Shown here in pieces: positions 5,844 through 9,938 of a stretch of DNA of 64,000 bases. Source of the DNA: a virus. The stretch covers positions 377 to 64,376 of the IMG/VR virus record IMGVR_UViG_3300045972_000291, one strand, 5' to 3'. Each line of letters begins with the position of its first letter. Position 1 is the stretch's first letter. The position numbers were made by a program, and so were the translations under genes. Below the pieces are notes generated by a model, which worked only from the letters and a program-made list of their open reading frames with translations, ran no database searches and had not been told where the DNA came from.

Positions 5844-6052
5844 ATCGCAATCCCCAGATGCGCAAACCGCTTCACCCGCGACCGATCCGGCACGCATGGT
5901 GTTTGCGGCTCGATCCGATGAAAGACCGGGATATTCGGTCGGGACCGGATTTCGACGATCTCGGAAACCGACCAAGCAAAGACTACGAACGCCAGCGCGG
6001 TCATGAAGCGCAGGGCGATGTCGGTGAGGGCGGAACGGGTGCGGTGGGTCAT
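5840..6052 (-). CDS. Small membrane protein
   Basis: Coupled ORF; hydrophobic IALRFMTALAFVVFAW. Confidence 0.6.
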   Translation of the reverse strand: MTHRTRSALTDIALRFMTALAFVVFAWSVSEIVEIRSRPNIPVFHRIEPQTPCVPDRSRVKRFAHLGIAI

Positions 6053-7119
6053 TTGCTGACAACCGAATAATGGGTGCGTCGTACTTCTCCCAACGTCGCG
6101 TCACCGCGTAAAAATGGGTTCCACCAAAACACGCCACCTTTCCGAACCTTGAAATGGCCCATAACGATATGTTGTCTAATCTCTGACGGGCTCGCATTGG
6201 CGCTCTCTGCGCGGCGCGCGTCATTCCTGGATAGATTGATTTCGACTGATGAATAAGAGAGGAATGGTTTTTTATTCCCTGCGTTACGGGCTTTATTAAA
6301 CTTAGATAACTCGACCTTTTCAGTAGATACGCAGTTACGACTGTTCATCATGCATATAATTGCAATTATCTTTTGATATTCCCCTTCCCAGTCTTGAGAA
6401 GAAGCCTTCATCATTCGGTCAAATTGGCTGTGATTTGCCTTTCGAACCGTTTCACAAAACTTTTCTGTATAAGGAGTAAAGGTAGGAATGCGATTACGAT
6501 TCAACTGGCGCATCGCTTCCATTTCTGTCTTGTTCGTGCTGAATTTTGTATATGATCCGCGCGGAATTGGCTCCGCAGGCGGGTTGATAGTTAACGGCCA
6601 ATCACGATCCCAATTGATAACATATCCAATAGACGAAATTTCGACCGGATACCCTATCTTGGCCCGCACATCTTTCGCGGTTGCCCCATTTTCTTGGCGC
6701 AATGCTTTGGCAAACAGACTAGATGATGGCGAGTGAGCCCAGACAAGTGTTAGTCCAAACCGCCGGTACGTTTCATCTAGGCATTCAGCTAGAAAACCCA
6801 TACGCACCGGGGCTTCAACGTCTAATTCTGGGTTCCAATGGTCCATTTTAAGCGTTCGGGTATCATTACCTGTTGACCACTCAAACCATGTTGTTTGAAA
6901 CGGTATGCGACAAAATTTAGTCGCTTCGAGCAGTGAAGACGGCCTCGATTTAGACAACTTTTCGCAAGCAGTTAGTGCGGTTTCGGAAAATACAAATCTT
7001 TGTGCTTCATTAATTCTTGTCGCCAACGCGCTGATGCCGCCACTCATTGCATCATCTAAAGATTTACCAACCGCCATGTGGACAAAATCTGCGAGTGTGG
7101 GCTCATGCTTTTTCATCAC
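6049..7119 (-). CDS. Hypothetical protein, AT-rich relative to neighbours
   Basis: 356-aa ORF coupled at both ends; C-terminal RQHIVMGHFKVRKGGVFWWNPFLRGD. Confidence 0.8.
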   Translation of the reverse strand: MMKKHEPTLADFVHMAVGKSLDDAMSGGISALATRINEAQRFVFSETALTACEKLSKSRPSSLLEATKFCRIPFQTTWFEWSTGNDTRTLKMDHWNPELDVEAPVRMGFLAECLDETYRRFGLTLVWAHSPSSSLFAKALRQENGATAKDVRAKIGYPVEISSIGYVINWDRDWPLTINPPAEPIPRGSYTKFSTNKTEMEAMRQLNRNRIPTFTPYTEKFCETVRKANHSQFDRMMKASSQDWEGEYQKIIAIICMMNSRNCVSTEKVELSKFNKARNAGNKKPFLSYSSVEINLSRNDARRAESANASPSEIRQHIVMGHFKVRKGGVFWWNPFLRGDATLGEVRRTHYSVVSK

Positions 7120-7403: not shown

Positions 7404-8609
7404 TCAGGTCCTCACAGCTTCGATGTAAAACTTGGAATTGATGCCGTAGCTGGCGGCAATGACGTCGTGGGGCGTCCGGCCAGCGAGCGCGCCGAGCAGG
7501 AATTTGCGGCGCGATCCGTCCGGCTCAAGCGAGCCGTTCTGGACTTCGACGATGCGGATCACGTCGCCTTTGATATTTGCGGTCATCAGCCGGCGGGCGT
7601 GGCCGTTTCCGTCCACATCCTCGGCCACGACCTCGGCTATCGCGCGGATCGGATCGAACGCGGTGACCTCGCACATGATGCGGCGCAGTTCCGCGTTCGG
7701 CTCCGCCATGATGGATTCCGCCGTGATGCGCGCCTTGTCCGTGATGATCCACGAATGATCGTCAGGGATGCGGTAGCCGTGCCAGGAATAGAGGCCCCAT
7801 CCGGTGCCGGCATAGCGGATCGCCATGCCGTCTTCGGCGTGCAGCTGGCCGCCTTGATCGAGGTGGATTTCAGAAGGGCGTTCCGACGCGAAGCAGATGC
7901 CATCCAGCGTCCAGTAGAACCCCGCGCTCGCGGTCATTTCAAGAAAGTTGCGGTCTATGGCGACCGCGCACGCCTCGTTGAAATAATCCGCCCAGGCTGA
8001 ATATCCGGAATTCCAGAGTGAGCCGCCAAAGAAGGACCAACCCGCCGAGTCCACCGCCGAGCGCACCGCCGAGCCCACCGCCGAGCCCACCGCCGAGTCC
8101 ACCGCCGAGTACACCGCCGAGCGCACCGCCGAGCGCACCGCCGAGTCCACCGCCGAGCGCACCGCCGAGTCCACCGCCGAGTCCACCGCCGAGTCCACCG
8201 CCGAGCGCACCGCCGAGTCCACCGCCGAGTCCACCGCCGAGTCCACCGCCGAGCCCACCGCCGAGTACACCGCCGAGTACACCGCCGAGCGCACCGCCGA
8301 GCGCACCGCCGAGCCCACCGCCGAGTCCACCGCCGAGCGCACCGCGACGTTTTTATCGCCGCCCTCGACGAGTCGATGCTGGATGATCGCGGCGTAGCAA
8401 ACCGCACTCAAGGCGGCGCTGATCGGGCAAGGTAACCAGATGACACGCGGCTCTTTGAGCTTCGCCAGCGCGTAGAGGCCGCGAATGGCGCGCTCGGCGC
8501 GGTCGCGATCTGCGGATTTGGTCGAAAGCCCGATCTCCGTCCATTTTCGGACGAATTCTGGAAAACGCGCTTTCTGTTCAGGCGTCAACGACATGATTTT
8601 CTGAGACAT
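7404..8609 (-). CDS. DUF6745-like protein with central V-x-S-A tandem repeat
   Basis: Start MSQKIMSLTPEQ; ERPSEIHLDQGGQLHAEDGMAIRY...WGLYSWHG and AEPNAELRRIM motifs. Confidence 0.8.
   Translation of the reverse strand: MSQKIMSLTPEQKARFPEFVRKWTEIGLSTKSADRDRAERAIRGLYALAKLKEPRVIWLPCPISAALSAVCYAAIIQHRLVEGGDKNVAVRSAVDSAVGSAVRSAVRSAVYSAVYSAVGSAVDSAVDSAVDSAVRSAVDSAVDSAVDSAVRSAVDSAVRSAVRSAVYSAVDSAVGSAVGSAVRSAVDSAGWSFFGGSLWNSGYSAWADYFNEACAVAIDRNFLEMTASAGFYWTLDGICFASERPSEIHLDQGGQLHAEDGMAIRYAGTGWGLYSWHGYRIPDDHSWIITDKARITAESIMAEPNAELRRIMCEVTAFDPIRAIAEVVAEDVDGNGHARRLMTANIKGDVIRIVEVQNGSLEPDGSRRKFLLGALAGRTPHDVIAASYGINSKFYIEAVRT
8043..8342 (-). repeat. 25 tandem copies of a 12-bp unit GTG NNC TCG GCG (V-x-S-A)
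   Basis: Counted directly: 300 bp; variable codon is only GAC, CGC, GGC or TAC. Confidence 0.97.
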
Positions 8610-8672
8610 GATAAACCTCCAGCCAAATGCGGTTTGGAACGCCCGCCGCTCGGACGGGCGCGCAAACAGCAC

Positions 8673-9698
8673 TTAGTCGGCGACAATCCTTTCCTCGGCG
8701 CCGGCGCTCTCGATCTGGCGCCCGATCAGGTATTCGCCGGGTGGAATGCGGATCGTGTCGTGCTCTTCATGGCTGAGGCACATCGGCCCGGTTTCGACGA
8801 TCAGGACGGCGACGGCGAGATCGACACGGGTGATGATGCCGGCGGCGCGCATCGACTCGACGGCGGCAGGGTCGCGGTAAAGCCGCGCGGTCGGAACGGC
8901 GATCTTGCCCGCTTGCGCGTCGGCCATAAGGTCCTGGACGGCTTTCGACGTCTTGACCGGCGCAATGGCGTCCGCCGAGCGGTCCAGAAGCGCAATCGCG
9001 TGATGGTGACCGGTCGTCTCGCCAGCGGCCAAAATCAAATGGCGCCCAGATGCGGCGAAGGCCTGATGGTGCGTGAGTTCTGCCGCCGCATAAGCATCCC
9101 GCGCCGCGTCCAGGTCGTGGAAATATCCAAGATGCTGGCGAACATCTCCACCAAGGCAAATCCGCGCCTGCCACTTGTTCCGCTTTGAATTCCAGAAAAC
9201 GCCCTTGATCCCTGACGTGCTATTTTTCGCTGGGCCAGAATTGTGCCTGTTCTGCGCGGGCGTCGCTTCCCGAAGGTTTTCGAGGCGGTTATCAACCCGG
9301 TTCCCGTTGATATGGTCGATATAGTGTTCTGGCCATTGGCCATGAACATAAAGCCACGCAAGGCGGCTGGCTTGGTGCTTCGCGCCATCAACCTTGATGA
9401 GCGTATAGCCAGCCGAATTGACAGAACCAGCGACAGTTCCTTCCCGCGCCGTTCCACCGACCGTTTTCCGCCATTTGAATTCGCCGGTCTCGGCGTCATA
9501 GGAAAGCAGATCGCGGACGCGCACGGCGAACGGGATTTCAGGCACATACGCCGGATGGCCATGCATCTTGATCGGCGCGATTTCATCGCTGCGGTCGATC
9601 TTGATCTTTTTGGGGATCGGAATGATGGACACGTCACCCTGGAACGCCATTCCCTTGGCGGGGTCATAATCGTGGATTGTGGAAGACGGATTTTGCAT
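8673..9698 (-). CDS. QGDV...GExTGHxH...HEEH family protein with in-frame HNH-AP2 endonuclease insert
   Basis: Host motifs FQGDV, GETTGHHH, HEEHDTIRIPPGEYLIGRQIE...RIVAD; insert carries DHINGNRVDNRLENLRE (HNH) and SGIKGVFWNSKRNKWQARI...HLGYF (AP2). Confidence 0.88.
   Translation of the reverse strand: MQNPSSTIHDYDPAKGMAFQGDVSIIPIPKKIKIDRSDEIAPIKMHGHPAYVPEIPFAVRVRDLLSYDAETGEFKWRKTVGGTAREGTVAGSVNSAGYTLIKVDGAKHQASRLAWLYVHGQWPEHYIDHINGNRVDNRLENLREATPAQNRHNSGPAKNSTSGIKGVFWNSKRNKWQARICLGGDVRQHLGYFHDLDAARDAYAAAELTHHQAFAASGRHLILAAGETTGHHHAIALLDRSADAIAPVKTSKAVQDLMADAQAGKIAVPTARLYRDPAAVESMRAAGIITRVDLAVAVLIVETGPMCLSHEEHDTIRIPPGEYLIGRQIESAGAEERIVAD
9051..9566 (-). mobile_element. HNH-AP2 homing-endonuclease-like insert (approximate bounds)
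   Basis: About 172 codons between ...EIAPIK and SGRHLILAAGE; begins with its own ATG. Confidence 0.75.
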
Positions 9699-9731
9699 GT
9701 GTTGATTTTCCTTCTGGGTTGAAGCGGTTGG

Positions 9732-9938
9732 TCAGTCGTCAAATTCGCCGAAGCCCTCATCGACTTCGTCTTCGTCGTCATGATCGTCGGCCCCGGAAAA
9801 CGGGCACCGCTCCGGGCCGGGGCAGCCAAAACCGGGGATGGTTCCGCATCGGCATCGGCTGGCGTGCCTGCGCTCTGCGGCCTCGTGGCGGGCCTCGCGC
9901 AGATCTTCGTCGAAACCTTCGTCGCCGTGTTTCAGCAT
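9732..9938 (-). CDS. Small Cys-rich, acidic-tailed protein
   Basis: MLKHG...RCRCGTIPGFGCPGPERCP...DDEDEVDE; fills the operon gap. Confidence 0.6.
   Translation of the reverse strand: MLKHGDEGFDEDLREARHEAAERRHASRCRCGTIPGFGCPGPERCPFSGADDHDDEDEVDEGFGEFDD

Follow-up and report, generated by a model that had tools for sequence, protein, structure and literature searches.

The phage DNA analyzed here comprises 64,000 nucleotides (positions 377 to 64,376 of IMG/VR record IMGVR_UViG_3300045972_000291; hereafter the window, to which all coordinates refer) and makes up nearly all of a 66.9-kb phage record rated complete by CheckV. Within it, we observe a small gene whose coding sequence is interrupted by a complete HNH-AP2 homing endonuclease that stays in the frame of the interrupted (host) gene, contains no stop codon and has no intein or intron features. 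According to the textbook view, a homing endonuclease occupies a coding gene only within a self-splicing intron or intein, or by splitting the gene. Judging from the sequence, we consider it fairly probable that this element is a mobile homing endonuclease that is simply read through, without splicing, and is maintained as an inserted domain at permissive sites beside its likely target. An earlier note on this DNA had proposed a homing endonuclease tolerated as a loop insertion without splicing, and that proposal is consistent with all of the computational evidence: insert-free homologues are the rule, intein and intron features are absent, the insertion sites are a predicted turn and a linker, the inserts form one clade on polyphyletic host alleles, and the changes in the flanks are confined to the junction.

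The gene is a single open reading frame (ORF) of 341 codons plus stop at 8673..9698 (-), with its ATG at 9698 and its stop codon at 8673-8675. The host N-terminal part, codons 1-44 (9567..9698, -), runs from the QGDVSIIPIP strands to DEIAPIK; it is delimited by the alignments and reaches predicted local distance difference test (pLDDT) values of 92-95 in both AlphaFold2 models. It is followed by the insert, codons 45-216 (9051..9566, -), the translation of which gives 172 stop-free residues from MHGHP to QAFAA, and by the host C-terminal part, codons 217-341 (8676..9050, -), which is 89% identical to uninterrupted homologues and holds the motifs HEEHD and GRQIESAGAEER. While the window allele reads ...DEIAPIK before the insert and SGRHLILAAGETTGHHH after it, the uninterrupted homologues of 152-175 amino acids read ...DEIAPV/NGRLILQEGEVTGHHH... 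at the junction (slash). The earlier note had the host protein split between EIAPIK and downstream host sequence by 172 in-frame codons, as the translation confirms, and alignment with uninterrupted homologues agrees with its junctions to within one extra codon per side relative to empty alleles (K44 and H220). Two minor likenesses were seen at the junction: positions 33-39 of the family profile match on both sides of the insert (9051-9068 and 9567-9590), and the endonuclease tail ...QAFAASGR loosely resembles the host sequence ...EIAPVNGR. This resemblance may stem from microhomology or from weak alignment near the end of the hidden Markov model.

Host proteins without the insert are abundant. 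The C-terminal part matches more than 140 proteins of 152-175 amino acids, the best of them 89-90% identical, and a profile search extends the family to at least 425 clusters, typically of the same length. Every fetched family locus is empty (52/52 from IMG/VR and 10/10 from metagenomes), and only P0001, P0122 and P0124 carry the nuclease, i.e., 3 of the at least 425 clusters. The possibility raised in the earlier note that all homologues have the domain at this site is thereby answered, with more than 400 host-protein homologues lacking the insert. No further carriers appeared in one metagenome-contig scan, one genome-contig scan and two viral-contig scans, in which the window's own genome records may be omitted, and the C-terminal part found no match among 50,697 GenBank phage records (tblastn). 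The nearest empty allele lies on contigs L001 and L002 with the same neighbors as in the window, the common gene order being an RNase_T-type exonuclease, an ORF of about 67 amino acids, the host gene and a DUF6745 gene. The host parts (44 N-terminal plus 125 C-terminal codons) match no Pfam family, the host fold has no convincing counterpart in the PDB by Foldseek and VIA-align (best Z 3.0), and its matches in the AlphaFold DB are only small uncharacterized beta-barrel proteins. One longer family member, P0310 (247 amino acids), has a precomputed match to PF00145 (C-5 DNA methylase) and could represent a further fusion or a gene-calling error.

With respect to the two other carriers, P0122 (contig L004) has its insert at the same site as the window and likewise a DUF6745-type neighbor, whereas the insert of P0124 (contig L005) lies in a variable linker some 25 codons downstream, following ...GEVTNHHHAVVLDRPPPET; in all three carriers it is in frame and stop-free. 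In the AlphaFold2 model of the empty homologue P0002 (pLDDT 81), site 1 is the PV/NGR turn just before strand 48-53 and site 2 is the low-confidence linker 65-79, so that the insertion sites are predicted to be a beta-hairpin turn and a disordered linker. The two sites border opposite edges of the most conserved block of the family, GRLILQEGEVTGHHH. Based on the insert tree, site 1 is more likely the ancestral one. The idea of a switch between sites, with the 12-residue insert leader being a decayed host stretch that once preceded a site-2 insert, was tried and dropped, as the comparison gave no significant result for the window and a borderline one for L004 (p 0.006 before correction for 8 tests). 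The L004 site-1 leader GGHTTVPLDSP (L004:357-389) resembles the host sequence HHAVVLDRP that precedes the site-2 insert (L005:3094-3156), which may be a trace of movement between sites with a carried-over flank, or chance.

The window is a metagenome-assembled viral contig whose best DNA match may stem from the same sample, and an artefact of assembly or gene calling could in principle have placed a free-standing HNH gene between two host-gene halves. However, an independent Logan assembly, a 21.9-kb contig from the probable source sample, spans the whole gene without differences, and a run from a second study contains a 151-nt piece lying within the insert. Because two unrelated metagenomic contigs share the same in-frame architecture, with inserts that are 59-68% identical to one another across the three carriers, we give an artefact practically no credence.

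The insert codes for an endonuclease of the HNH-AP2 (HNN-AP2) type. Its HNH_3 catalytic core, residues 109-151 (9246..9374, -), matches PF13392 with an E-value of 2e-14 (53 bits against a cut-off of 24.8), and PHROG_99, annotated as HNH endonuclease, matches residues 60-220 (E 4e-63), which bears out the complete HNH domain of the earlier note. The core contains the boxes SRLAWLY, WP, DH, DNR, NLRE and QN, invariant across all three known inserts; HNN-AP2 endonucleases from Xanthomonas phages have been described with the boxes RLAW, WP, DH, DNR, NLRE and QN (PMC2248197). The AP2-like DNA-binding domain, residues 162-206 (9081..9215, -), gives only a weak match to PF00847 (E 0.003, 18 bits against a curated cut-off of 33.3), while the region is covered by matches to PHROG_99, PHROG_4578 and PHROG_24751 and aligns at full length with PHROG HNH-AP2 families and free-standing relatives. 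Homology to free-standing endonucleases extends over all of residues 58-216, and upstream of this region lies a Pro-rich leader of 12 codons, MHGHPAYVPEIP (9531..9566, -). No solved structure matching the insert by sequence was found. An exhaustive search of 1.8 billion representatives assigns the insert to an HNH-AP2 family of great size, with 120,000 representatives at E<=0.001.

Relatives of the insert are ordinarily genes of their own. We examined 22 in IMG/VR, and every one that could be checked is a free-standing ORF of about 165-185 amino acids, with its own start 5-24 amino acids before the core and its stop 0-15 amino acids past an ...HGEFA-like tail, at the place where the window tail ...HHQAFAA continues directly into host sequence. 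Contig L085, considered as a second in-frame fusion, was rejected, being a normal free-standing ORF with a stop. The insert ATG noted earlier (M45) is present in the window, but it is not conserved in the same-site P0122, which has no start codon at the insert start, and it is probably incidental; no Shine-Dalgarno-like sequence was found upstream of it. Because there is no ribosome-binding sequence before this ATG and no start codon in P0122, the nuclease is probably translated from the start of the host gene.

Features of splicing are missing at both the protein and the RNA level. No Hint or intein family matches the ORF at E<=1 (hmmscan against Pfam), the only matches being HNH_3, AP2 and a chance match to PQQ_2. 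Instead of the Cys/Ser/Thr (or Ala) of inteins, the insert starts with Met in the window and with Gly or His in P0122; it ends, carrier by carrier, in Ala-Ala, Ala-Val and Tyr-Ala, with no terminal His-Asn or Asn. The junction residues (K/M and AA/S in the window) are not conserved among the carriers; the +1 residue is Ser in the window (Ser217) and P0122 and Ala in P0124, and this Ser, the sole intein-like feature, is insufficient by itself. No Rfam intron family was found at E<=1 (two chance matches only), the insert RNA folds no better than its shuffles (z -1.27), and, with all but 36 nt of the insert covered by the endonuclease homology, no room is left for a ribozyme. Both the missing intein termini and the lack of non-coding space for a group I or II core, as stated in the earlier note, are therefore upheld. 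No RNA run was found to contain the sequence, and no joint skipping the insert occurs in the contigs of two DNA runs, although contigs cannot reveal rare variants. The insert is thus probably not spliced. An unrecognized excision by protein splicing, proteolysis or RNA processing, giving an insert-free mature host protein, would be in keeping with the +1 Ser of the window and P0122, which is shared with many intein junctions, and with the non-canonical inteins and hidden endonuclease layouts that phages repeatedly yield. Considering that the endonuclease fold accounts for the whole insert and that a Hint domain, an N-terminal nucleophile, a terminal Asn, constant junction residues and an intron family are all missing, and that the folding is unremarkable, we regard such a cryptic removal as quite improbable.

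The three inserts form a single clade (SH-like approximate likelihood ratio test, 98; quick tree) and share no more than 50% identity with any other of the 1.8 billion representatives. They are under purifying selection, with a ratio of nonsynonymous to synonymous substitution rates (dN/dS) of 0.13-0.30 and saturated dS. The host moieties of the carriers, in contrast, do not cluster and are scattered among empty alleles: the host-gene tree requires three changes of insert state, even when only well-supported branches are respected, and the window allele falls within a 99-supported clade holding seven empty alleles. One insert clade on polyphyletic alleles is consistent with homing.

We observe that changes specific to the window allele concentrate at the junction. 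Compared with its seven closest empty relatives, it has 8 private states. Six of these, five of which are 3' of the junction, lie no more than 12 residues from it and fall in the most conserved block of the family, a clustering with a binomial p of 5e-5. To judge from the sequences, the private changes near the junction would look like a short co-conversion tract or like target-site changes that protect the carrier. The conserved block near the junction, GRHLILAAGETTGHHH (9000..9047, -), reads GR-LILQEGEVTGHHH in empty alleles, the window differing by the extra codon H220, by QE>AA and by V>T. Each carrier shows one deviation in the conserved block beside the insert (window E>A, P0122 E>S in the same column, P0124 G>N), whereas 16 of 162 empty alleles deviate in the nine conserved columns of the block and 4 of 162 at that Glu. 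We infer that this block is the putative target of the nuclease.

In these same four empty alleles (P0121, P0103, P0073 and P0120), Ala takes the place of the 97.5%-conserved Glu of LILQEGE, and P0121 reads LILAAGE, identical to the window carrier allele. Such Ala-bearing empty alleles could be endonuclease resistant, or could be footprints of precise insert loss.

The earlier note had also offered a domesticated fusion, with the nuclease arming a DUF6745 module of the chimeric protein. This part did not stand up, since DUF6745 (PF20530, E 3e-27) sits on a separate downstream gene at 7404..8672 (-) and the nuclease is present in only three of the more than 400 family clusters. The DUF6745 gene adjoins the host gene in every inspected locus, empty alleles included. 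In a wider form, the nuclease and its DNA-binding module would give the host protein, or the pair of host and DUF6745 proteins, a new DNA-targeting function, and both the purifying selection on the insert and its intact catalytic boxes fit such a role. HNH domains are indeed nested in functional proteins, e.g., the HNH of Cas9 and IscB inside RuvC. However, rare carriers scattered among empty alleles, two different insertion sites, flank changes as expected of co-conversion or target immunity and a DUF6745 gene equally adjacent to empty alleles are hard to reconcile with domestication, which we consider very improbable.

A recent and essentially destructive insertion would require only the upstream frame; the host protein would be without function or not needed, and the frame downstream would still be open through luck and short time. 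Apart from the junction tract, only 2 private changes distinguish the window allele, compatible with youth, and the GC content at third codon positions (GC3) is 0.62 in the insert versus 0.73 and 0.80 in the flanks, suggesting no amelioration; the L004 insert is not distinct from its flanks in composition. On the other hand, all three carriers, at two independent sites, have an open downstream frame without the stop of the free-standing relatives, and the inserts differ by dS>1 (i.e., some carriers are old), yet the host moieties keep nearly all conserved positions. Among 46 columns that are >=95% conserved in 162 empty alleles, 45 are kept by the window, 44 by P0122 and 43 by P0124, the single loss of the window being E>A in LILQEGE. 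Host-moiety branch lengths are not elevated in the carriers, and the phage record has no spare copy, with the host gene and the HNH_3 gene each present once. A destructive insertion is therefore unlikely, even though the near-invariant Glu at the junction is lost and the hairpin following the insert is modeled at low confidence.

As for structural models, the full-length AlphaFold2 model is confident at residues 10-43 and 250-330. ESMFold2 docks residues 1-44 on residues 217-341 with a score of 0.46 (best control, 0.01), the docking runs sharing >=76% of contacts and the partner pLDDT being >=59. The pass mark of this procedure was reached by 51/78 solved complexes and 2/108 mismatched pairs; at scores <=0.60, only 5/78 solved complexes passed, and all 4 passing mismatches (of 180) fall in this range. 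The docking lends weak support to the notion that the N-terminal host part still docks on the C-terminal one. Alignments A5-A7, to which free-standing HNH-AP2 pieces had been added, were discarded, as MAFFT shifted the ends of these pieces onto host columns. A YD-x-x-x-G-x-F pattern is common to the host N terminus, IHDYDPAKGMAF (9647-9680), and the N-terminal hairpin of the endonuclease, LLSYDAETGEFKW (9483-9515); this likeness, strong enough to mislead MAFFT, is probably due to chance.

Several points weigh against a tolerated, non-spliced insertion into a working host protein. In the full-length AlphaFold2 model, pLDDT is below 50 over most of the insert, the alignment of which is three sequences deep, and about 40 in the hairpin after it (residues 212-245), so the host fold may be disturbed by the insert; the model is poor on the insert and hence gives no measure of the distance between domain ends. 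HNH-AP2 endonucleases may be elongated, a shape that would be awkward in a tight turn. The loss of the near-invariant Glu beside the junction counts here as well. Given the almost complete lack of private changes away from the junction, the window insertion may be recent, in which case its intact host moiety would say little about retained function. Only three carriers are known, two of them on short contigs, and, from sequence, splicing or proteolytic release of the insert is possible.

We nevertheless favor a read-through insertion, the course of which may have been as follows. A normally free-standing HNH-AP2 gene would have come to lie in frame in a small conserved early gene, with its stop codon and any conserved start of its own gone. 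Ribosomes would initiate at the host ATG (9698) and translate through the insert into one 341-amino-acid protein, in which the endonuclease would be an internal domain at the turn that leads into a beta-hairpin of the host fold, removed at neither the RNA nor the protein level. In this way the endonuclease would use the expression signals of the host gene, like an intein-borne endonuclease, and the downstream 125 host codons would still be translated. Upon co-infection, the nuclease would cut insert-free alleles in or beside the conserved block (the codons for GRLILQEGEVTGHHH), and repair would copy in the insert and, with it, some 13 altered codons of the flank, which would also make the carrier allele uncuttable.

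The closest precedent is found in mycobacteriophage DNA methylase genes, which harbor the ShiLan domain and the Pacc40 'hidden HNH' elements (Arsenault, Gosselin & Gogarten 2025, PMC11855218). Like the window insert, these are HNH elements inside a phage coding gene, without intein or intron features and with the host frame open; the host protein is predicted to have a loop insertion, and the distribution is sporadic and homing-like. In ShiLan, however, a GTG start and a TAA stop delimit the HNH, which does not share the host frame, and translation of the insert in the host frame gives a meaningless hairpin or loop. The window nuclease is in the host frame, has no stop and has an ATG that is not conserved in its same-site relative, so that the folded nuclease itself would be the internal domain, with no separate initiation needed. 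A same-frame nuclease is the plainest version of a read-through insertion.

Inteins with an HNH or LAGLIDADG endonuclease offer an analogy, as they too lie in frame in a conserved block, are translated from the host start and are mobile by homing, features that the window insert would share. Inteins differ in having a Hint domain, Cys/Ser/Thr at position 1 and a terminal His-Asn, all of which the window insert lacks, leaving nothing to ligate the flanks. Free-standing HNN-AP2 or HNH-AP2 endonucleases are known from the Xanthomonas phages Xp10, OP1 and Xop411 (PMC2248197) and as gp59 and gp209 of ICP1 (PMC10448857), and Magnani et al. (2004) is also cited as a source on HNH-AP2 homing endonucleases. 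These share the domain pair, the boxes RLAW, WP, DH, DNR, NLRE and QN/EN and a length of about 160-185 amino acids with the window insert, but are intergenic ORFs with their own start and stop, whereas the window insert is embedded, without a stop or a conserved start. Further relatives in arrangement are the nrdA gene of Aeromonas phage Aeh1, which is split by mobE into a gene in pieces (PMC3045599), and the endonuclease ORFs that are joined in frame to the 3' ends of mitochondrial host genes, e.g., in Ophiostomatales mitogenomes (PMC7902536). In both, as in the window, an endonuclease lies in or against a coding gene with no self-splicing vehicle; a host product is still made, as would be the case for the window gene. 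They differ in that the two Aeh1 polypeptides are separate and reassemble, while the window host sequence is in frame on both sides of the nuclease, and in that the mitochondrial fusions are terminal, while the window nuclease is internal.

Endonucleases as unspliced internal domains represent a lifestyle that is only beginning to be described. As a general statement, it is conceivable, though somewhat short of probable in our judgment, that homing endonucleases can persist as permanent, folded, same-frame internal domains ('inteins without splicing') at permissive turns or linkers beside the targeted block, expressed from the host start and spreading with a short, immunizing converted flank. 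If general, this would give endonuclease genes a third vehicle in addition to introns and inteins, and would be a plausible natural route to HNH domains nested in other proteins. If the chimera is made and both of its moieties work, a selfish nuclease can persist in a gene without splicing, and the host protein has defined permissive sites for a domain of 170 residues. The 1-kb gene with its many empty alleles would then also be a compact system in which to measure target recognition, flank co-conversion and the cost of the domain.

Some minor observations concern the surroundings of the gene. The phage is uncultured, and its gene content points to an alphaproteobacterial cell as its host. On many IMG/VR contigs (L007, L010-L016, L019-L021 and others), the interrupted gene's family lies about 0.5-4 kb from a contig end, which suggests a conserved position near one genome terminus. 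An ORF of 264 codons in another frame, 9035..9829 (-), is Arg/Ser-rich and looks like compositional noise. The 356-codon ORF at 6049-7119 (-) has no Pfam match, a GC content of 0.46 versus 0.62 for the window and a GC3 of 0.44 versus about 0.8 for its neighbors, and looks like a recently acquired foreign gene. The downstream DUF6745 gene (7404-8672, -) contains about 25 tandem V-x-S-A units (x being R, D, G or Y) at about 8043-8342, and relatives have other short repeats at the same place, e.g., QQVxQQV in L062.

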